Shown here in pieces: positions 3,761-44,968 of a stretch of 64,000 bases of DNA. Made by a program: the position numbers and the translations under genes. Each line of letters starts with the position of its first letter. The first letter of the stretch is position 1. Origin of the DNA: a virus (lineage: Duplodnaviria; Caudoviricetes); IMG/VR virus record IMGVR_UViG_3300028591_005215, positions 64,001 to 128,000 of that record. One strand, 5' to 3'. The notes below the pieces were generated by a model. It ran no database searches and had not been told where the DNA came from. It saw nothing but the letters and a program-made list of their open reading frames with translations.

Positions 3761-4891
3761 TTATTTAATTACTACTTCATTATCAATGCAAGTTGCACTA
3801 AAAACGTAATTTTTCTTATAGTCATTCTCCAGCATTAAATCAGTAATTTTATCTTCAATATTATCTTGAACAAGCCTAATAATAGGACGAGCACCAAATT
3901 CCTTTTGACTAACTGCTTTAACGTGTAAGTAATCTACTACTTTGTCATCATATTTTAAATCATAATGTAATTCATTTAATCTATTGGCTAATTTATTAAT
4001 TTCTAACTTAACAATAGTATTAAGATTTTCATCAGTCAAATTGTTGAAATAAACTATTTTATCAATTCTATTTAAGAATTCTGGTGTAAACTTCTTTTTT
4101 AATGACTTTTCTATGATAGATTTTTTATTTGCTGTCTCGTTAGTGTTAAAACCGACACCACCACCAAGTTCAGCAGATTCTTTAGCACCAATATTAGATG
4201 TCATTAGAACAATTACGTTTTTAAAATTAACAATTTGTCCTGCTGAATCAGTTAGTCTTCCTTCATCAAATAATTGCAAGAATAAATTATAAACTTCTTG
4301 GTCAGCTTTTTCTATTTCATCAAGAAGCAAAACGCAATGCTGCTTATTTTTAATTGCTTCTGTTAATTGACCACCATTTTCATATCCTATATATCCAGGT
4401 GCAGCACCAGTTAATTTAGCAACTGAATTCTTTTCAGAATATTCTGACATATCAATCCTGACTAAAGCCTTCTCATCACCAAAAATTTCTTCGGCAAGTT
4501 TTTTCGCAATTAGCGTGTTATGACTTAGTATTCCATTTGTAAAATATCTATGGTTTGAATTGTCAGACAACGCCAAATCGTACATCTCTTCATATTCATT
4601 TGTATTAATAACGTCAGTGACGGTTTCAATACCATTTATAGTATAGATTTTATCACCTACGGCAAAATCTTTTGCAAATTTTTCTTCTAATTTTTCATTG
4701 AAAAGAATGTGGTCATCTGCACATTCAAGTTCTTTACCACTGGATGTTTTAATAATATATTTCAGATAAGGTATTGTCTTGTTTATAGAAACGATGTCAG
4801 CAAACCCATTATCAGTCTCAACTTCGTAATCTGTAACATCAATTATTTCTGTAAATTTTCTATTTATAGTATTTGATAATTTTTCATTCAT
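3761..4891 (-). CDS. Split intein C-fragment fused to the C-terminal half of a ClpC/ClpB-like AAA+ ATPase
   Basis: CADDH (block B), MYDLAL (block F), GILSHN|T (block G), then RIDMSEY, APGYIGY, LLLDEIEKA, PEFLNRID, FGARP; ATG at 4891 overlaps the upstream stop (ATGA). Confidence 0.9.
   Translation of the reverse strand: MNEKLSNTINRKFTEIIDVTDYEVETDNGFADIVSINKTIPYLKYIIKTSSGKELECADDHILFNEKLEEKFAKDFAVGDKIYTINGIETVTDVINTNEYEEMYDLALSDNSNHRYFTNGILSHNTLIAKKLAEEIFGDEKALVRIDMSEYSEKNSVAKLTGAAPGYIGYENGGQLTEAIKNKQHCVLLLDEIEKADQEVYNLFLQLFDEGRLTDSAGQIVNFKNVIVLMTSNIGAKESAELGGGVGFNTNETANKKSIIEKSLKKKFTPEFLNRIDKIVYFNNLTDENLNTIVKLEINKLANRLNELHYDLKYDDKVVDYLHVKAVSQKEFGARPIIRLVQDNIEDKITDLMLENDYKKNYVFSATCIDNEVVIK
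4517..4891 (-). mobile_element. C-intein (about 125 aa) of a naturally split intein
   Basis: Hint blocks B, F, G; ends His-Asn before Thr+1. Confidence 0.85.
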
Positions 4892-6090
4892 TTTTTTAAA
4901 AAATTTATACATTCATTAATTACTTTTTCTTTATTTTCCCTATAATCTTTTTCCCACACTACAAACTCTTCAAATCCATTTCTTTCAGCAATATTTTTTT
5001 TATCTTCATCTATTTCCCAAAGTTCTTTAGCTGTCTTATCGTGAAATGGATTTGGTTTATCAGATGGCTTAAACATTTTTGGGTTAGCATGATAAATATC
5101 TCCGTTAAATTCAATGAATTTTCTTTTATTCAAATCACAGAAATCGTACCTATAGTAAAAATTATTGTCATTTTTTAAAGTATATTCTCTATTTTTATCT
5201 TCATAAAAAACAAAATCTTTTTCTTCTTCTGGATATTTTTTCAATATTTCGCCAAAAAGCTCTTGGGATATTTTGGAATAACCTAGTTGATGAAAACCAG
5301 TTTTGTTTAGGCTATCTTGCCATTTTTCTTGTCTTTTCTTCCATCTTTTTAGTCCTTCATTTTCTCCGTATTTTTTTATGCACTTTTTAAGTGAAAATGT
5401 GGATTGTATTTCAGCAACTTTTTCCTTAGCATCATTCTCAGAGTAACCTTTTTCAATCCAGTGTTCTATGCACCTAACACTATTTTTTCTGCGTTCGCTT
5501 TTGCTTTTTGATGCATTTCTTTTAGCAAGTTCTGTTTGATATTCAGATACTTTTTTTTTAGCATCATTTTTAGAATAACCTCTTTTAAGCCAGTATTCAA
5601 CACACCAAATGCTTCTTTCTTTAAAGAATTTATTGCAATCTTTGCCAAGTGATTCTATATATTTTTTGTTAACTATTGGTACTTTACCAGCAGCTTTTTT
5701 ACCCCTTTCAGATTGCATTTTTGATATTATTTCTTTTCCTTCATTTTTAGAATAACCTTTTTTAAGCCAATATTCTATACACAACTTATTACGCTCCTTC
5801 ATATATTCATTAATGAAGTCGTCATCGAATCCACGTTCTAATAGTCCTTCACGAGAACTATGCCAATGCTTGATGAATGGAATTTTTTTAATAACATCTT
5901 TTATTAGTGTTAATTTGTTTATTTTTCCATCATTTAAACAATAGTAATCAAAGCAATCTTTTAATGCGTTTATTATTTTTGGATTTTTAAAGTTTAGTAA
6001 AGGATTAAATGACTTTAATACTTCAACAAATTCATTAAAATTTAAATCGTCACCAAATGTTTTTCTTTTTTTATCTAATAATATTGTCAT
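4888..6090 (-). CDS. Free-standing Vsr-like (PD-D/ExK) putative homing endonuclease
   Basis: C-terminal YDF...IEFNGDIYHANP...VVWEKD; three C(I/V)E(Y/H)W.(K/E)(K/R)GYS repeats; lies between the split intein halves. Confidence 0.75.
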   Translation of the reverse strand: MTILLDKKRKTFGDDLNFNEFVEVLKSFNPLLNFKNPKIINALKDCFDYYCLNDGKINKLTLIKDVIKKIPFIKHWHSSREGLLERGFDDDFINEYMKERNKLCIEYWLKKGYSKNEGKEIISKMQSERGKKAAGKVPIVNKKYIESLGKDCNKFFKERSIWCVEYWLKRGYSKNDAKKKVSEYQTELAKRNASKSKSERRKNSVRCIEHWIEKGYSENDAKEKVAEIQSTFSLKKCIKKYGENEGLKRWKKRQEKWQDSLNKTGFHQLGYSKISQELFGEILKKYPEEEKDFVFYEDKNREYTLKNDNNFYYRYDFCDLNKRKFIEFNGDIYHANPKMFKPSDKPNPFHDKTAKELWEIDEDKKNIAERNGFEEFVVWEKDYRENKEKVINECINFLKK

Positions 6091-6114
6091 AATATTTTGT
6101 TTTCTATATAAATA

Positions 6115-7998
6115 TTATGATTTTTTATATTTATTGGCTCTACTGGCTAACTTTTTAAACTCTTCTATCGTAAGTTCTTGTATTTCAAGTGTTTTCTTAT
6201 TTCTAACCCTTATTTTCGTGTTTTTTGTAACGCATTTTCCACAACCCGTAGGACCTCCCATTAGGATGTTAGCCATAGTTTTTGTTTTATCACCAAGTCC
6301 TACCTTGTTTCTTTTAATGACTTTGCAAATAGCATCAACAGCTTCATCTTGCCCTATAACACTATTTTTTAAAATTTCATCAATATGTGCAATCTTCTTT
6401 TTTTCGTTTGAACTGAGCTTTGAAACAGGCACCTTTACCATTTCTGAAATTGTTTCATTAATATCATCTGCGTCAATAATTACTTCTTTTGATTTTTTAG
6501 ATGACTGCTCACGTTTATAATCACTTAATTCTTTTTTGATTACATTTTCTTCTAACGTAATAGCATCAATTTTTTCAAATTCTCCAGCATTAAGATACGT
6601 TGATTTTTCTTCTTCAATTCCATCTAATCTTTTTTTCATTGCAATAATTTCTTTTGGCTCTTTTTCACCGATTGATGTTGATGCGCCTGCTAAATCAATA
6701 ACATCAAAAGCAGAATCTGGTAAACTCCTATCAGTTATATACCTTTCAGCAAGTTCAACTGCTTTTTCTATTGCTTCATCAGTGTATTTAACATTATGAA
6801 ATTCTTCATAATAACCTTTAGACTGCTTCAAAGTTTCAATGGCTTCTTTAGTACTAGGTGCTTCAATAATGATACGTTGCATTTTTCTTGAAATAGACGT
6901 ATTAGATTCAATTGAATTTCTATAATCTTTAAATGTTGTTGTACCAATAACTCTAACATCACCGCCAGATAAAATATCTCCAATCATTCCTGAAATATCA
7001 GTATCTTTATCTTTAGTTCCACTTTTTAAAACATTCTGCATATCATCAATAAAAAGAATGTACTTTGATGATGATTTTAATTCATCAAATAATCCTTTAA
7101 TGCGTTCTTCAAACATTCCTCTAAAGTGTGTTCCAGAAACAATTGCCATAATATCAATCATAACGATTTCTTTACCTTCAAGTATTGATGGTACGTTACC
7201 TTTTGAAATCATAGATGCCAAACCATACACAATTTCAGTCTTACCTACGCCACCATTACCTACAAGAATTACGTTGTTTTTCTTTCGTCTTGCAAGAACC
7301 TTGATAATTTCATTAATTTCATCTTTCCTTCCTACAAGTTCATCAATTTTACCGTTCTTAGCTAATTCATTCAAGTTAGTTGTAAACTTTGACACATATT
7401 CGTCTTTTGTTACAACGCTTGAAGTATTTACTTCACTTTTTAGAGGGAAAATAGCTGGTTTAAGCGAATTACCAATTTTATTACTGATAAAGCCTTTAGG
7501 CCTTATTGCTTTTGGTGTATGTTTTGGTTTAACTTTGTCTTCACTGCATTTATCTAAAATAAAGCTATATTCAATCCCTACTGTTTTGAATACATCCTTA
7601 ATTTTAATTTCGTTAGATGGGTTTAAAATAGAAAGTAATACATGTTCAGTGCCAACTTTTTTAGAACCTGTTGCTTCCATTTCTTTTTCAGCATTTTCTA
7701 AAATTTTATTTAGCTCAAAATCAAAGTTTACTTTACTATTGTCTTTATTTTTTACAATTGGCTTAGAATGTTCCTTTAATACGTTTATATAAATTTCTTT
7801 TAGTTCATACATATTATTGGACATTAAACAATTGTCAAGTATCATATTTGCGTGACAATTCTTTGTATCAAGAATTGAAACCATTAAGTATTCAGGCGTA
7901 AAAATTTCAGTTGGGAATTCATTTACAAGGATATCAACCATATAAGTCAAGACACCCTGTAGCTCATAAGAATAAATATCGTTTTTGCTTTCACTCAT
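6115..7998 (-). CDS. ClpC/ClpB-like AAA+ ATPase N-terminal half ending in an N-intein
   Basis: Clp N repeats (GTEHVLL), VGRKDEI, RRKKNN, GNGGVGKT, RYITDRSLPD, VIGQDEA, GPTGCGK|CVTKNT. Confidence 0.9.
   Translation of the reverse strand: MSESKNDIYSYELQGVLTYMVDILVNEFPTEIFTPEYLMVSILDTKNCHANMILDNCLMSNNMYELKEIYINVLKEHSKPIVKNKDNSKVNFDFELNKILENAEKEMEATGSKKVGTEHVLLSILNPSNEIKIKDVFKTVGIEYSFILDKCSEDKVKPKHTPKAIRPKGFISNKIGNSLKPAIFPLKSEVNTSSVVTKDEYVSKFTTNLNELAKNGKIDELVGRKDEINEIIKVLARRKKNNVILVGNGGVGKTEIVYGLASMISKGNVPSILEGKEIVMIDIMAIVSGTHFRGMFEERIKGLFDELKSSSKYILFIDDMQNVLKSGTKDKDTDISGMIGDILSGGDVRVIGTTTFKDYRNSIESNTSISRKMQRIIIEAPSTKEAIETLKQSKGYYEEFHNVKYTDEAIEKAVELAERYITDRSLPDSAFDVIDLAGASTSIGEKEPKEIIAMKKRLDGIEEEKSTYLNAGEFEKIDAITLEENVIKKELSDYKREQSSKKSKEVIIDADDINETISEMVKVPVSKLSSNEKKKIAHIDEILKNSVIGQDEAVDAICKVIKRNKVGLGDKTKTMANILMGGPTGCGKCVTKNTKIRVRNKKTLEIQELTIEEFKKLASRANKYKKS
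6118..6234 (-). mobile_element. N-intein (39 aa) of a naturally split intein
   Basis: CVTKNTKIRVR...ELTIEEF block A pattern starting at Cys1 directly after the Walker A Lys. Confidence 0.85.
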
Positions 7999-8116
7999 AT
8001 TTTCTCTATTTTTATATAAAATATATAATAATATTTTAAAGAGTCAAATAAAATATTATATATATTATTAAAAATAAAATATATATTATTTTTTTTGTTT
8101 TATTAATTATTTTTAA

Positions 8117-8124
8117 TATATTTG
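8117..8124 (+). promoter_or_regulatory. Bacteroidetes-type primary sigma -7 box (TAnnTTTG)
   Basis: TATATTTG upstream of the KTSC-thyA operon; same box at 19473, 36366, 49356 (+) and 3637, 28838 (-). Confidence 0.6.
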
Positions 8125-8660: not shown

Positions 8661-8903
8661 ATGGAAAAATTTGACAATTATTTAATAGAAAATTCAAAAA
8701 CCTATAAGTCAGATATATCATGGGTGGATTGCTTTTATAATGATGCTGCAATGCGAATTATTAATGACTTGCTAACTCCGCAACTTATAGAAGAAATAGA
8801 CAGAGAAATAGTAAATTCTTTATCATCTAATCAATGGACTTGGAAAATTACGCAAAAGTCTGATGTTATTCCTAATAGCAGACCTTATCACTATGAGAAA
8901 TGA
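8661..8903 (+). CDS. Small protein resembling a major capsid protein segment (EIDREI helix)
   Basis: LTPQLIEEIDREIVNSL vs own MCP LSEQIAAEIDREILRDL. Confidence 0.65.
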   Translation: MEKFDNYLIENSKTYKSDISWVDCFYNDAAMRIINDLLTPQLIEEIDREIVNSLSSNQWTWKITQKSDVIPNSRPYHYEK

Positions 8904-9060
8904 AAACATTGATATTAACATAAGTAATACATATGTTGGCAAAGCCTTAGTTGATATAGTATTTCATCGAATTCGTCCAATGGTGATTGGAAATAAAGAC
9001 GTTAATTCTATAGAAATGGATAAACCAACAGGTATTTTATTTTATATTGATTTTAAATAA
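8893..9060 (+). CDS. Small protein resembling the Gol-peptide region of the major capsid protein
   Basis: HRIRPMVIGNKDVNSIEMDKPTGILFYI vs own MCP RRVFSKLLANDIVSVQAMNLPVGKLFFI; ATG 8893 overlaps the upstream gene end. Confidence 0.65.
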   Translation: MRNENIDINISNTYVGKALVDIVFHRIRPMVIGNKDVNSIEMDKPTGILFYIDFK

Positions 9061-9066
9061 AAAAAT

Positions 9067-9543
9067 ATGAGTGCAATTATAATTAGTGCTTTCCCTGGTA
9101 TGGGAAAAAGTTATGCTTTTAATGCTTTAAAGGACAAAATTAAAATATTAGATAGTGACTCTAGTAAATTTAATAAAGATGAATTTCCTTCAAATTATAT
9201 CAAGCATATAAAAGATAATATAGCAGATAATGATATAATTTTTGTATCATCGCACAAAGAAGTACGTGATGCATTAGAAATTGAAGGAATTGATTATGAT
9301 TTATTTTACCCATCTAAAGAGCGTAGGAATGAGTTTTTAGAAAATTATGTTAGTAGACATTCCCCAAGTGGGCTAATTCAAAAAATAGATAATAATTGGC
9401 CAGAATGGATAGATGAAATAGATGGTGAAGTAAGTAAACATTGCCATAAACATTGCCTAAAAAATAAAGGTGAATTTATTTTAAATAACCCTATGATTAT
9501 GTCGTTTGTGTCACAAGTTATTGACGAAAAAGAAAATAAGTAA
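9067..9543 (+). CDS. P-loop NTPase / kinase-like protein
   Basis: N-terminal AFPGMGKS Walker A followed by DSDSS. Confidence 0.65.
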   Translation: MSAIIISAFPGMGKSYAFNALKDKIKILDSDSSKFNKDEFPSNYIKHIKDNIADNDIIFVSSHKEVRDALEIEGIDYDLFYPSKERRNEFLENYVSRHSPSGLIQKIDNNWPEWIDEIDGEVSKHCHKHCLKNKGEFILNNPMIMSFVSQVIDEKENK

Positions 9544-9554
9544 CTTATTAAAAA

Positions 9555-10535
9555 ATGATTATGAACAACGTAGATAAGCAATATTTAAATTTACTTACTG
9601 ACATTAAAAATAATGGAGCTTTAAAATCAACAAGAAGTGGTGATGTACTATCAGTATTTTCACGTACAATGCGATTTAATTTAAAAGAAGGCTTTCCATT
9701 ACTAACAACCAAAAAAGTCTTTTACAGAGGGGTTATAGAAGAATTATTATGGTTTATAAGCGGTTCTACTAACATAAAGGCTTTAACAGATAAAAACGTA
9801 CATATATGGGATGATGATGCTTATAGGCATTATAAGTCATTGATAAAAAAACACAATTCGCTTACAAATGCGTTAGATAATGACGTTAAAGTCGCACTAA
9901 ATAAAGATGAATTTATTAAAAAAGTTTCCGAAGAAGGATTTGAAGATTTACTATATAGTCCCGATGGATATAGAATGCGATATATTTATGGTGATTTAGG
10001 CCCTGTATATGGTAAACAATGGAGAAGATTTGGAAATAGTGGCGTTGACCAAATAAAAAAAATAATTGACACATTAAAAACAAATCCTAATGATAGAAGA
10101 TTACTTTGTGTTGCATTTAACCCATCGGATTTAGATGAAATGGCATTACCTCCTTGTCATGTAATGTTTCAATTCTATGTGCGTGAATTAAATGATGGCA
10201 AATATGGGCTAAGTTGTAAATGGACGCAAAGAAGCGTAGATAGCTTTTTAGGTTTGCCATTTAACATAGCAAGTTATGCAGCGTTAACATATATGATTGC
10301 AGAAGTTGTTGGAATGGTACCAGATGAATTGATTGCCGATTTAGGTGATACTCATATTTACTGTAACCAAATGAAAGCTGTTGATGAACAATTAACAAGG
10401 AAAGGGTTTGATACATTACCTACTTTAAAATTTGGAAGAAAAATTGATGATATAGATGACTTCAAATATGAAGACTTTATAATAGAAAATTATAAAAGTG
10501 ATAGTACAATAAAAGCACCTTTAAGTGTTGGGTAA
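9555..10535 (+). CDS. thyA: Thymidylate synthase
   Basis: FPLLTTKK, ELLWF, GDLGPVYGKQWR, ALPPCH, QRSVDSFLGLPFN, GDTHIY. Confidence 0.97.
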   Translation: MIMNNVDKQYLNLLTDIKNNGALKSTRSGDVLSVFSRTMRFNLKEGFPLLTTKKVFYRGVIEELLWFISGSTNIKALTDKNVHIWDDDAYRHYKSLIKKHNSLTNALDNDVKVALNKDEFIKKVSEEGFEDLLYSPDGYRMRYIYGDLGPVYGKQWRRFGNSGVDQIKKIIDTLKTNPNDRRLLCVAFNPSDLDEMALPPCHVMFQFYVRELNDGKYGLSCKWTQRSVDSFLGLPFNIASYAALTYMIAEVVGMVPDELIADLGDTHIYCNQMKAVDEQLTRKGFDTLPTLKFGRKIDDIDDFKYEDFIIENYKSDSTIKAPLSVG

Positions 10536-10574
10536 AATAAAAGCGAAGCTTGAATAAGGCTTCGCTTTTATTTT
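10534..10574. terminator. Bidirectional intrinsic terminator
   Basis: AAAATAAAAGCGAAGC...GCTTCGCTTTTATTTT. Confidence 0.8.
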
Positions 10575-34300: not shown

Positions 34301-36283
34301 ATGAGAGAATTTTTAACTAGCGGTCAAGTTGGTAATATCGAATTGAACGCACAAAAGAAAATACGTGAAGACATCCAGAATCGTTGGGACCAGTTAGGCT
34401 TTACTGAAGGCCTTGATGGCACAATTAAAGAAAATGTCGCTACGTTGTATGAAAACGAAGCAAAGCACTTGATTTATGAGGCCACTGCTTCTGATAACTC
34501 TGGTTCATTTGAAACTGTAGTTTTCCCTATTATCCGTAGGGTATTCAGCAAGTTGCTTGCTAATGATATCGTTTCAGTTCAGGCTATGAACTTGCCAGTA
34601 GGTAAATTGTTCTTCATTCTTCCTGTAACAAGTGAAAGAGAATGGGAAGTTCCTGCTGCTGGTGCTGCTGATGCAGCTGCTGGTGACATTGTAGATGGTA
34701 CTACAGGTCGTCACAAAGGTTTGATGGGTTATGACCGTACAAACCGTAACAAGGAAGGTCGTGTTGAGCCACGTTACTATCTTCCTGATGAAACTATCAA
34801 AGATTTGGATAAAGAAAAGTGGTATGTTCCTCAGTTGAATCAGACACCAGAAGATGCTACTACTTACGAAGCAGCATTGGAAGCAGCTAAGGCTGAAGGT
34901 CTTGGCGTAACCGCATTGCGTCAGGCAGGTCCTGAAGTTACTCAGTATTTCGAAAAGAGCTTGTATGACTTGTTCTACAATGATTTCTTGTATGATAACT
35001 CTAAGGGTAAGGTAACTATCAAGGTTGGTGAAGCTAAACTTGCTAAACTTACTCCACGTGGTATGGAAGATTTCGTAGATGGCGATTCTGTACAGGTTAA
35101 CGGTTTCGATGGTACTGTTCGTAACGTAATTCTTAAAGTTGGTGGTTTCTCAAGCTTCAACGCTTCTAAATTGACAGGTCCTGATGGCAACGAAATGGAC
35201 ACTGAAGGTTTCTTAGCTTCTTTGAAAGTTATCACTACACAGGCTATTGCAGCTGGTGAAGTTGAAGGTGCAAGTGGTGTTACTACTGCTTCTTTCAAGA
35301 AATACGAATCAGTTCCTTTCCGTGTTGCTACACAGAAATATGGTAAAGGTATCGTAGAATATGGTTCAGCTTGTGATGCTGAAGGTTATATGTACATCGA
35401 ACTTGATTTGGCTAAACCAGTAGTTCAGCAAGCAGGTACAATTGATGGTTATGTTGGTGTTAACCCATCAGCAATAGCAGACGCTTCAATGTTTAAAGTG
35501 GCTTGGGCTCAGTATGATTCACTTGAATTGGAAACTGAAATTGGTGAAGTTTCTTTCAAACTTGATTCAGTAACTGTATCAGTAGAAGAAAGAAAACTAC
35601 GTGCTACTTGGTCACCTGAATTGGCTCAGGATGTTAGTGCATTCCACAACATCGATGCTGAAGCTGAATTGACAGCTATTCTTTCTGAACAGATTGCAGC
35701 TGAAATTGACCGTGAAATTCTTCGTGACTTGCGTAAGGGTGCACCTTGGCAGGCTCGTTGGGATGTAAATGGTTGGAGACGTATGGCAGCATTCTCAACT
35801 AACTACACTCAGAAAGATTGGAATCAGGAATTGTTCACAAAGATTAATCAGATTTCTGCTCAGATTCATAAGGCTACACTACGTGGTGGTGCAAACTTCA
35901 TTGTAGTTTCTTCTGAAATTTCTGCATTGTTCGATAACTTGGAATACTTCCACGTTTCTGATGCAAGCGCTGAATCAGACCAGTACAATATGGGTATCGA
36001 AAAGATTGGTTCTTTGAACGGTCGTTATCAAGTATATCGTGACCCATATTCTCCACATTGGTCAATCATTATTGGTCACAAGGGTAAGTCACTTCTTGAT
36101 ACAGGCTACATCTATGCACCATATGTACCAATGCAGTTGACCCCTACAATCTACAACCCATTCAACTTTGCACCTGTTAAGGGTATTATGACTCGTTATG
36201 CTAAGAAGATGGTTAACAACCGTTACTACGGTCATGTACGTGTTGATGGTCTTGTACATTGGGATATTTCTGAATTGAGATAA
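34301..36283 (+). CDS. Major capsid protein (gp23-like) with large insertion
   Basis: IIRRVF...VSVQAM..P.G; RKLRATWSPELAQD; EIDREI; GYIYAPYVP; KGIMTRYAK; strongly biased codons. Confidence 0.96.
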   Translation: MREFLTSGQVGNIELNAQKKIREDIQNRWDQLGFTEGLDGTIKENVATLYENEAKHLIYEATASDNSGSFETVVFPIIRRVFSKLLANDIVSVQAMNLPVGKLFFILPVTSEREWEVPAAGAADAAAGDIVDGTTGRHKGLMGYDRTNRNKEGRVEPRYYLPDETIKDLDKEKWYVPQLNQTPEDATTYEAALEAAKAEGLGVTALRQAGPEVTQYFEKSLYDLFYNDFLYDNSKGKVTIKVGEAKLAKLTPRGMEDFVDGDSVQVNGFDGTVRNVILKVGGFSSFNASKLTGPDGNEMDTEGFLASLKVITTQAIAAGEVEGASGVTTASFKKYESVPFRVATQKYGKGIVEYGSACDAEGYMYIELDLAKPVVQQAGTIDGYVGVNPSAIADASMFKVAWAQYDSLELETEIGEVSFKLDSVTVSVEERKLRATWSPELAQDVSAFHNIDAEAELTAILSEQIAAEIDREILRDLRKGAPWQARWDVNGWRRMAAFSTNYTQKDWNQELFTKINQISAQIHKATLRGGANFIVVSSEISALFDNLEYFHVSDASAESDQYNMGIEKIGSLNGRYQVYRDPYSPHWSIIIGHKGKSLLDTGYIYAPYVPMQLTPTIYNPFNFAPVKGIMTRYAKKMVNNRYYGHVRVDGLVHWDISELR

Positions 36284-42772: not shown

Positions 42773-44968
42773 ATGGCTGTAAATAATCATATACAATTAT
42801 TTAGAAATCAAACTTTATTTGCATCAAGAGAAGATGCTATTATTGCATTAAATAATGCTAATAAATCCGTTGATGCAATGCAAGTTCAAGATGGTAACCC
42901 TGTTCTTGCTCGTTACACTGACACTGACAAGAGTGTTAAATCTTTGCTTGCTTTGTTCCATGTTGCAAATGATAAGACAACTTACACATTGGTAACTGAT
43001 GGCGCTGCTGTTGAAGCTGCTATTAGTGCATTGGAGACAAATGTTAATAACACTTTTGGCACTGGTGTTACTTCTGCAAATACAGCAACTGCTCAGTTTG
43101 CAGCTTTGAAGGGAACAACTGCTGACACAAAGGTTGCTGAATCTGTAGCTGGTGCTAAGAAATATACTGATGATGCAGTTAACACTTTGAAGAGTGGTGC
43201 TACTAAAGGCTATGATACTCTTAAGGGACTTGAAGATAAGATTAAAGGTGTTGAATCAGCAAATGCTGCTACAATTGGAGCACTTGATTTAGATACTGTT
43301 AGCGCAGAAGGAAGTGTGATAACTTCTGTTTCACAGACAGACGGTAAAGTTTCTGCTAGTGGTACGCCAATTGTTGACGTTAAATTGACAGGCTTTGCAA
43401 AAGACAGTGCTTCTGGTGATATTGCTGCTACAGATAGTGTTAAAGACGCCTTCTCTAAATTGGAGAATCGTATTATTAGCTCCACAAATAAAAACTCTTT
43501 GAGTGCTGGTAACAAATCAATTGTTGTTACATCTAGTGAAAATGGTAACACAGTGGCTGTTAAAATTAAGAGTGGTGAAAAAGTTCTTGCTCTTAATAAT
43601 GACACAACTGAAGAAAATGGTGGTATTTACACTGACATCAAACTCGTTAAAATTACAAGTGGTCTTGGTGCTAATGTAAAAGAAGCCTATCAATTGCAAG
43701 GTATTGGTGGTACACAACTTGGTAATACACAAATCGAAATTCCTAAAGATTATTCTTTGAAAGAAGCTTATCTTGGTTCTTCTGGAGATACCGTAAATTC
43801 AGAAACAGGTGATATTACAAAGGTGCCTGCTCAAGATGCGCAATCATTGAACTTTGTTTATCATCTTGAAAATGGTACGTATTCAATGGCTAAGGTGGAT
43901 GTTTCTAAATTCTTAACCCAAAGCGAATTTGCAAGTGGTGTTACTGCTGACAAGACAAGTGGTATTGTTCATGGTGTTGTTGATAGTACCTCTGAAGAAT
44001 TCTTGACTGTTGGTGAAAATGGTTTTAAACTTGATGGTGTACAAACTGCAATTAACTCAGCAAAAGCTGAAGCTAAGACTGCTGTTAGTAAAAAAACTAG
44101 TGGTCACGTAACTGTTACTGTAGTTTCAGATGCTACTGATGGTCATGCTGTAGTAACTGTAGCTGAAAATGACATCGCAAGTGCTGCTGACCTTGCAAAT
44201 GAGATTACCCACCGTAAAGCTGTTGATGGTATTGATGGTGATACTTATGTAGTTAATCAAAATACTAATTATATTAGCACTGCTACATCTTTGAACGATG
44301 CTGACATTAAGTTGGACGCTCAAGCTAAGGCTAATGCTGATGCTATTGCTATTTTGAATGGTAATGCTACTACTAACGGTTCAGTTGCTAAAGCCGTTGC
44401 TGATGCAAAAGACCTAATTAATGCTTATACTGTAAATAACAAAGCAATTAGTGGAAATCCTGTACTTGATGGTTCTGATATCACATTGACTGGTTATGAA
44501 GCAGCTACAGAAGCTTCTGCCCCTACTTCTGCTGATACAGTTAATGCAGCAATAGCTAAATTGTATAAGGCTATCAGCGATGCAACTGGTGGAGCAAGTT
44601 CAAGTATTTCTGATGAAATTGCACGTGCTGAATCTGCTGAAACATCAATTGATACAGCTGTAGGCTTAACCAAGGCTGTTGATGGTGAAAGTAGAACTTA
44701 CACTAACACAGGTACTTATATCGGAACTGGACAGACTAACACAATCACGTCTGATATCAAGGCTCTTGATACTCAGGTTAAGGCAAACGCTGACGCAATT
44801 GATTCTGCTAATACAAAGAATACATTATCATCTGCTAATAACGCTCTTGATATTAATGCACAGTCGAGTGGTACAACTTTGACTATCAAAGTTGACACGC
44901 AAACTGGTCTTGCAATTGATAGCGCAAAAGGTATTCAGATTTCAGGTATTGATGGCGGGACATACTAA
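42773..44968 (+). CDS. Tail fibre-like protein
   Basis: A/T/S-rich; DTLKGLED, GSVAKAVADA, EIARAESAE fibre motifs; ends IDGGTY. Confidence 0.7.
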   Translation: MAVNNHIQLFRNQTLFASREDAIIALNNANKSVDAMQVQDGNPVLARYTDTDKSVKSLLALFHVANDKTTYTLVTDGAAVEAAISALETNVNNTFGTGVTSANTATAQFAALKGTTADTKVAESVAGAKKYTDDAVNTLKSGATKGYDTLKGLEDKIKGVESANAATIGALDLDTVSAEGSVITSVSQTDGKVSASGTPIVDVKLTGFAKDSASGDIAATDSVKDAFSKLENRIISSTNKNSLSAGNKSIVVTSSENGNTVAVKIKSGEKVLALNNDTTEENGGIYTDIKLVKITSGLGANVKEAYQLQGIGGTQLGNTQIEIPKDYSLKEAYLGSSGDTVNSETGDITKVPAQDAQSLNFVYHLENGTYSMAKVDVSKFLTQSEFASGVTADKTSGIVHGVVDSTSEEFLTVGENGFKLDGVQTAINSAKAEAKTAVSKKTSGHVTVTVVSDATDGHAVVTVAENDIASAADLANEITHRKAVDGIDGDTYVVNQNTNYISTATSLNDADIKLDAQAKANADAIAILNGNATTNGSVAKAVADAKDLINAYTVNNKAISGNPVLDGSDITLTGYEAATEASAPTSADTVNAAIAKLYKAISDATGGASSSISDEIARAESAETSIDTAVGLTKAVDGESRTYTNTGTYIGTGQTNTITSDIKALDTQVKANADAIDSANTKNTLSSANNALDINAQSSGTTLTIKVDTQTGLAIDSAKGIQISGIDGGTY

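Follow-up and report, generated by a model that had tools for sequence, protein, structure and literature searches.

Two small overlapping genes of a giant T4-like gut phage resemble conserved segments of its own major capsid protein

Why would a phage carry, some 25 kb from its capsid gene, two tiny genes that look like pieces of its own major capsid protein (MCP)? The question arises in a 64,000-nucleotide (nt) stretch, hereafter the window, which comprises bases 64001–128000 of the 279,749-bp IMG/VR virus record IMGVR_UViG_3300028591_005215 and has a GC content of about 30%. The phage is a giant T4-like phage of the sheep and cattle gut, and metagenomes from both sources hold DNA near-identical to the window. 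A first reading of the sequence (the original prediction) had pointed out two open reading frames, here ORF1 and ORF2, as separate, overlapping genes in a non-structural operon that match two conserved MCP segments, and had proposed that they are early decoys for capsid-sensing immunity or else modulators of capsid assembly. Coordinates, frames and quoted peptides of both ORFs were all correct, as were the reversed order relative to the MCP, the 25-kb distance and the placement as separate, overlapping genes among non-structural ones; the likeness itself is real by hhalign, PHROGs, language-model and six-frame searches. The elements concerned are:

8661–8903, plus strand: ORF1, 80 amino acids (aa), with a conserved N-terminal half and a variable tail
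8724–8822, plus strand: MCP-spine-helix-like segment, ORF1 aa 22–54, resembling MCP aa 445–477 (P-domain)
8893–9060, plus strand: ORF2, 55 aa, ATG at 8893 and stop codon at 9058–9060; the start overlaps the end of ORF1 (ATGAGAAATGA)
8959–9048, plus strand: MCP N-arm/Gol-like segment, ORF2 aa 23–52, resembling MCP aa 77–106
34301–36283, plus strand: MCP of the T4 gp23 type, 660 aa (Pfam Gp23, E 2e-73)
34529–34618 (aa 77–106) and 35633–35731 (aa 445–477), plus strand: the two MCP segments matched, as given by alignment

In pairwise BLASTP, ORF1 aa 22–54 and MCP 445–477 are identical at 13 of 33 positions (E 2e-4), and ORF2 aligns with MCP 77–106 without gaps at 9 of 30 identical positions (E 0.004), the pattern common to ORF2 and the Gol stretch of the MCP being R..P..I........M..PTG..F. 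These alignments were originally chosen by eye, and unbiased searches were therefore added. Hidden Markov models (HMMs) of the two families, run against the full set of 1132 ORFs in the 280-kb genome, placed the MCP first after the query itself (E 0.042 and 0.0092), and tblastn against the six-frame translated genome gave the same ranking with the MCP leading. Against an alignment of 77 MCPs (51–99% identical), hhalign returned a score of 36.8 for ORF1 (P 5.6e-5) and 29.1 for ORF2 (P 5.4e-4); the maxima reached in 150 column shuffles, 25.4 and 24.5, lie below these real scores. When 21 related genomes were searched in six frames, the ORF2 profile had the MCP N-arm as its top or only non-self match in every one (21 of 21; E 1.4e-4 to 1e-2), and the ORF1 profile had the spine-helix region of the MCP in that place in 15 of the 21 (E 0.003–0.066). 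Among the PHROGs, phrog_138, annotated as major head protein, was matched by ORF1 and one of its homologues (E 0.13 and 0.081) and, for ORF2, by the homologue from a relative (E 0.003), at the positions expected (221–248 and 66–96). For ORF2, Gp23 clusters made up 28 of 30 neighbours in the ESM Atlas, the best with a score of 0.94 and 195 of 256 features.

Small orphan proteins may also come to look like a capsid protein by accident, through composition and helical periodicity. Taken singly, the scores are indeed weak (12–21 bits) and Pfam stays below its cut-off, ORF1 gave no informative signal in the ESM Atlas (best score 0.80), and scanning many ORFs by eye invites selection bias. However, two adjacent genes each select the MCP from whole genomes, shuffled controls never score as high as the real profiles, two independent profile libraries return the major head protein, and the language-model neighbours of ORF2 are almost all Gp23. 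Chance is already disfavoured, and we regard it as very unlikely. Judged on the sequence, the resemblance is not due to chance, though it lies beneath family thresholds; it is weak per residue and specific. A Pfam search of the whole genome in six frames found no Gp23 copy beyond the MCP, and extra copies of the two-gene cassette or DNA-level repeats of it were not found elsewhere in the genome. The best non-MCP match of the MCP-family HMM is a 731-aa ORF at 42773–44968 (plus strand; E 0.02), either a distant vertex-type paralogue or noise.

Which parts of the capsid protein are these? MCP 72–122 aligns with residues 28–75 of mature T4 gp23, equivalent to 93–140 of the full-length protein, and so covers the Gol region, which we take to span about residues 93–122 of gp23 in a mapping made by alignment; the ORF2 segment thereby falls in the Gol-equivalent region, as had been supposed. 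MCP 445–477 corresponds by alignment to gp23 residues of about 278–310, where the P-domain spine helix begins and where His282/Met284 lie. Few parts of the MCP are as conserved as these two segments: across the 77 sequences, 24 of 30 columns (aa 77–106) and 30 of 33 columns (aa 445–477) are at least 90% conserved. An origin of the mini-genes from one particular MCP lineage gave no signal, both segments being near-invariant in the 77 MCPs. In T4, Gol is a 29-residue peptide that binds domains II and III of EF-Tu, and no part of gp23 is reported to be better conserved (PMC3014915). The elements copied by ORF1 and ORF2 adjoin each other in the fold, because in the expanded T4 head Met98 of the N-arm lies beside His282/Met284 within one subunit; the latter cluster together with Met98 anchors the portal whiskers, and spine-helix residues 292, 306 and 307 are gp31-bypass sites (PMC9546572). 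A complete HK97-type fold was not found in the 80- and 55-aa products, whose secondary structure is predicted as helices and strands (two helices in ORF1, strand-helix-strand-strand in ORF2). AlphaFold2 predicts a helix over ORF1 aa 22–54, the most confident part of its model, with a predicted local distance difference test score (pLDDT) of 74–79, and the MCP-like part of ORF2 is predicted, with low confidence, in a helix-strand-strand layout.

Could the two ORFs be one gene, divided by a programmed frameshift or a sequencing error? The relatives with DNA for comparison (contigs L002/L004 and L003) carry flanking genes 94–99% identical to those of the window, and the MCP on the L002 contig (L005) is 99% identical to the window MCP. 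A 1-nt indel just past the ORF2 start alters the frame relation, so that ORF2 lies in +1 to ORF1 in the window and in −1 in L002/L004, where the overlap is ATGA and L002 starts ORF2 at a second ATG. Since the frame relation differs among relatives, a frameshift or error joining the ORFs is ruled out, and a conserved frame relation with a slip site between them was not found among the relatives compared. In both frame versions ORF2 starts from an ATG of its own and stays open beyond the indel, which argues for selection on ORF2 translation. In the window the ORF2 frame is already open from an ATG at 8863. A shared N-terminal handle (S-x-T-Y) of ORF1 and ORF2 was also considered, and hhalign and BLASTP found nothing. 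ORF1 and ORF2 are best explained as genuine accessory genes with coupled translation, placed in a variable slot of an early-type operon for nucleotide metabolism; together they occupy the entire 415-bp gap between a KTSC-domain gene and a P-loop gene, with flanking gaps of 9 and 6 nt. The surrounding elements are:

8094–8124, plus strand: promoter-like site, TTTG (8094–8097), 19 nt, TATATTTG (8117–8124), 62 nt 5’ of the KTSC start codon
8187–8651, plus strand: KTSC-domain protein, first gene of the operon (Pfam PF13619, E 6e-9)
9067–9543, plus strand: P-loop protein, phrog_4182 (E 1.8e-48), following ORF2 in the operon; function unassigned
9555–10535, plus strand: thymidylate synthase (thyA), final gene of the operon, named by reading the translation
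10534–10574, plus strand: intrinsic-terminator-like hairpin, 18-bp stem and T run, directly after thyA, ending the operon

The five genes from KTSC to thyA look like one operon with a putative host-type promoter, because the TTTG/TATATTTG site lies upstream and the hairpin at 10534–10574 is the only strong terminator-like structure, none being internal. The spacing of TTTG, 19 nt and TATATTTG agrees with what we take to be the Bacteroidota −33/−7 consensus. The host-type promoter suggested at the outset is plausible on these grounds, but the window holds no excess of the TATATTTG octamer itself (12 seen, 11.4 expected), so that the site stands as a consensus match alone. The KTSC protein is 98–99% identical among relatives (ratio of nonsynonymous to synonymous substitution rates, dN/dS, 0.04), the P-loop gene was found in every relative searched, and thyA is 99% identical in relatives with a dN/dS of 0.02–0.04. 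Many head and structural genes are preceded, 20–60 nt upstream, by a recurrent ATATTTAT(T/A) motif that is distinct from TAnnTTTG and is a candidate late-promoter element; such sites lie upstream of 11513, 14839, 16914, 24469, 30387, 32671, 41194 and 45092. In the window motif list no late-type ATATTTAT motif stands upstream of the mini-genes. RNA-library contigs span ORF1 (run X21) and ORF2 (run X20), which is no proof of transcription, timing or strand; stretches of the window that these runs leave uncovered are uninformative.

The reading that we favour, and hold tentatively, is that of an early-made two-piece mimic of the N-arm/spine-helix surface of the MCP, which would vie for a partner able to read short MCP motifs. 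ORF1 would supply the start of the P-domain spine helix and ORF2 the N-arm helix with its hairpin, the Gol region of T4 gp23. Both products would be made ahead of the capsid protein and may pair, imitating capsid elements that touch each other, and the mimic could then compete with the MCP for a partner that recognises these short motifs; the likeliest partner would come from the host, as a factor or sensor akin to Lit/EF-Tu or CapRel. Sensors of short MCP motifs do exist, namely Lit and CapRel (bioRxiv 10.64898/2026.01.04.697583). A narrower version makes the pair a trigger decoy: two early peptides would bind, without activating, a Lit/EF-Tu-like or CapRel-like capsid sensor and so blind the cell beforehand. 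We consider this version unlikely; an anti-defence role of any kind is a putative one. Searches with Pfam, PHROGs and the exhaustive profile search, with no dedicated anti-defence library among them, gave no match to a described anti-defence family. Nor did we find any description of capsid-fragment or capsid-mimic genes in the literature searched, which is weak evidence of absence.

A number of observations speak against such a capsid mimic, whether as decoy or in the wider sense. EF-Tu is far too abundant to be titrated. The Gol peptide of T4, made on its own, triggers Lit and does not block it (PMC3014915). As free Gol activates Lit and EF-Tu is abundant, a decoy must bind a scarce sensor without activating it, and unless binding occurs without activation a mimic could harm the phage. 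For Pfam PF07068 (Gp23), with a cut-off of 24.4 bits, ORF1 reaches 12.7 bits (E 0.086) and ORF2 has no hit, and just 3 of 8 ORF1 homologues attain E values of about 0.05–0.09. The AlphaFold2 models are poor (pLDDT 58 and 64), and Foldseek with the ORF2 model against the PDB gave nothing at E ≤ 0.001, the top rows being ferredoxin-like metal-binding domains. Searched exhaustively with the profiles, 1.84 billion representative proteins yielded only the genes’ own clusters, a narrow clade; three further proteins listed for ORF1 are repeat proteins (fn3, crystallin, CARMIL-like) and were judged spurious. Estimated from three cassette DNA sequences and at equal dS (0.15–0.29), dN/dS is 0.67–0.90 for ORF1 and 0.90 for ORF2, against 0.02–0.18 for three flanking genes; overall values near 1 are also compatible with relaxed constraint and are not clearly purifying. 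ORF2 is frameshifted in L003. In the RNA-library contig from run X21, 14 nt stand in place of ORF2, and the ORF1 tail is truncated as well. In the 58-aa protein P0011, from a 920-bp contig, aa 1–44 of ORF1 run in frame into the final 14 residues of ORF2, a fusion explained by the loss of about 223 nt between direct TATAGAA repeats (window 8785–8792 and 9008–9015). The original prediction, which is supported in part, had staked its case on a profile match to Gp23 and on conservation in relatives, and its own grounds for refutation apply to some extent. The former stayed below the Pfam threshold, but local homology was recovered through hhalign, PHROGs and HMM searches; the latter is confined to a narrow clade at dN/dS values of 0.7–0.9, and relatives keep the genes in so far as their frames are open, but ORF2 is broken, absent or deleted in three variants. 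The pair is not obligatory, because ORF2 is broken, missing or mostly deleted in these variants.

The same observations bear on a decaying relic, in which the two genes would be leftovers of MCP-derived sequence that are passively carried and in the course of being lost. A possible source is a larger mini-MCP such as the 212-aa gene (P0018) that two relatives carry: L104 660–1295 (minus strand) in G010, equivalent to G010:C1:39159–39794, and L105 681–1319 (plus strand) in G004. This protein is 42% identical to MCP aa 1–89, i.e. propeptide and N-arm (E 1e-15), matches the beginning of the spine helix weakly, lacks the insertion domain, A domain and P-domain sheet, and is absent from the window genome. 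As G010 and G004 carry this MCP-derived gene, capsid-derived accessory genes recur in this phage group. The dN/dS of 0.67–0.9 and the frameshifted, deleted or collapsed ORF2 of L003, X21 and P0011 are what decay would produce. So is the distribution: the cassette is missing in 20 relatives at a greater distance (MCP ≤84% identical; eight complete genomes among them), and elsewhere the slot is empty or otherwise filled. Against decay, ORF1 is open in all homologues and variants, although a random frame of 80 codons would be open with a probability of about 6e-4 at this composition, and its indels (12 and 24 nt) are all multiples of three and in frame. Its N-terminal 44 residues are kept in every variant, and 26 of the first 47 positions are invariant across 8 sequences. 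The gene boundaries are tight and coupled, with the switch of the ORF2 start offsetting the indel. Partitioned dN/dS, noisy as it is, comes to 0.3–0.4 for the MCP-like helix part of ORF1 in two window comparisons with small counts; the same comparisons, equally noisy, show a replacement excess in the ORF1 tail and in the MCP-like part of ORF2. On balance we think a relic rather unlikely.

Homologues of ORF1 measure 83–95 aa and are 59–88% identical to it, those of ORF2 are 62–96% identical, and all come from a handful of metagenome contigs. A tblastn search of 50,697 phage records with ORF1 and ORF2 yielded no match at E ≤ 1, and a word-based search found no fused or full-length relatives of ORF2. 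Weak extra Gol-like matches in two related genomes (G014 and G008) lay in an antisense frame or were unconvincing. The pair behaves like clade-specific accessory genes of fast turnover that are derived from MCP elements or selected to resemble them; a variable slot and fast evolution are typical of conflict-related accessory genes.

A partner in head assembly, in place of a host sensor, is a further alternative. Here the mimics would bind MCP, scaffold, portal or chaperonin, and would either time or chaperone the folding of the phage’s own capsid or poison the assembly of co-infecting relatives. The copied elements suit such a role, as they are determinants of structural contact and folding, comprising gp31-bypass sites and portal-whisker anchors (PMC9546572), and relatives to compete with abound: several hundred related phages live in the same gut habitat, judging by at least 598 MCP relatives confirmed in IMG/VR and by rumen-type runs. 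A dominant-negative fragment would, however, strike the phage’s own MCP as well, the segments being at least 90% conserved in the 77 MCPs; moreover, the operon that holds the two genes is non-structural and distant from the head genes, and close relatives with a 99% identical MCP can dispense with them. A role as head-assembly or competition factor, be it as timer, chaperone or poison, seems to us quite unlikely.

ORF1 taken by itself could also be a packaged internal protein: its leader, MEKFGNYLIE|N, would be a capsid-targeting one of the T4 kind, with which such a protein would be loaded into proheads, cut by the head protease and injected with the DNA. For the targeting of T4 IPIII the first 10 residues are enough, of which positions 4 and 7 serve targeting and 8 and 10 processing, and the internal proteins of T4 are poorly conserved, in the manner of an arms race (PMC9026906); Tyr7, Leu8 and Glu10 are invariant in the ORF1 family. 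Position 4, however, is occupied by Phe in one half of the family and by Asn in the rest. ORF1 is acidic, with a net charge of about −4 as counted on its sequence, whereas internal proteins of the T4 type are basic (PMC9026906). No late-type ATATTTAT motif lies 5’ of ORF1, and the leaders of the phage’s putative packaged proteins differ, reading MKKII(I/L)xE. We judge packaging to be highly improbable.

How does the preferred two-piece mimic of the capsid surface compare with known systems? Bacterial capsid sensors include Lit, CapRel, Avs7/8/10 and TIR systems. To our knowledge, phages answer capsid sensing by escape mutations or by unrelated inhibitor proteins. The closest known system is Gol/EF-Tu/Lit of T4 and prophage e14, where a Gol-region peptide of about 29 residues suffices to bind EF-Tu (PMC3014915). 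ORF2 aa 23–52 lies gap-free on the homologous MCP stretch, but is part of a free-standing 55-aa gene product from an early-type operon and not of the capsid, and any effect on EF-Tu or Lit is putative. To gp23/gp24 (Pfam PF07068, HK97 fold; PDB 5VF3, 7VS5, 1YUE) the likeness is local, to N-arm and spine helix: products of 80 and 55 aa stand against 660, A domain, P-domain sheet and insertion domain are missing, the blocks come in reversed order in two genes with scores below the family cut-off, and no shell could be built from them. DSAD1, which acts against DSR2 (PMC11087589), is alike in concept: the phage makes a small protein that vies with a structural protein, the trigger, for the sensor. 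No derivation of DSAD1 from the tail tube protein with which it competes is described, whereas the candidate competitor here copies trigger-like motifs. The 212-aa mini-MCP is likewise an MCP-derived accessory gene of the same phage group, but is a single gene in native order, with clearer homology and at another locus.

Should the mimic reading be right, the phage would have a new means of dealing with this conflict, or of steering head assembly, by making small genes from capsid motifs that sensors, or else EF-Tu and chaperonins, recognise; the products would be small and easily testable peptides. If they act as decoys, the cassette would be a fast-turnover member of a widespread, undescribed class of mini-genes in T4-like phages that encode fragments of structural proteins. 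The natural variants act as deletion and fusion experiments, with ORF2 broken, ORF2 deleted, or ORF1 fused to ORF2. If the genes are neutral relics, the locus documents the scattering and decay of core-gene pieces in giant phage genomes rich in homing elements.

The surroundings of the operon vary among relatives too. In G004 the KTSC-to-P-loop slot (L088 1941–2373, minus strand) holds a MazG-like gene of 101 aa and a 52-aa ORF, and in G020 (L086 1045–2244) it is empty. The thyA product of G004 (L088 258–1454, minus strand) has 398 aa, against 326 aa in the window, with two internal insertions. Just 5’ of the KTSC operon, G020 carries a TnpB-like C-terminal fragment with a Zn-ribbon (CSVCG...CPVCH; L086 77–469, plus strand). 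Upstream of the operon in the window, at 3761–7998 on the minus strand, a ClpC-like ATPase gene is broken at the second of its Walker A motifs (GPTGCGK|C...), and an ORF of 400 aa separates the halves. The ClpC-like gene of L002 (831–3350) is uninterrupted and encodes 839 aa, so that the insertion in the window is recent and mobile.

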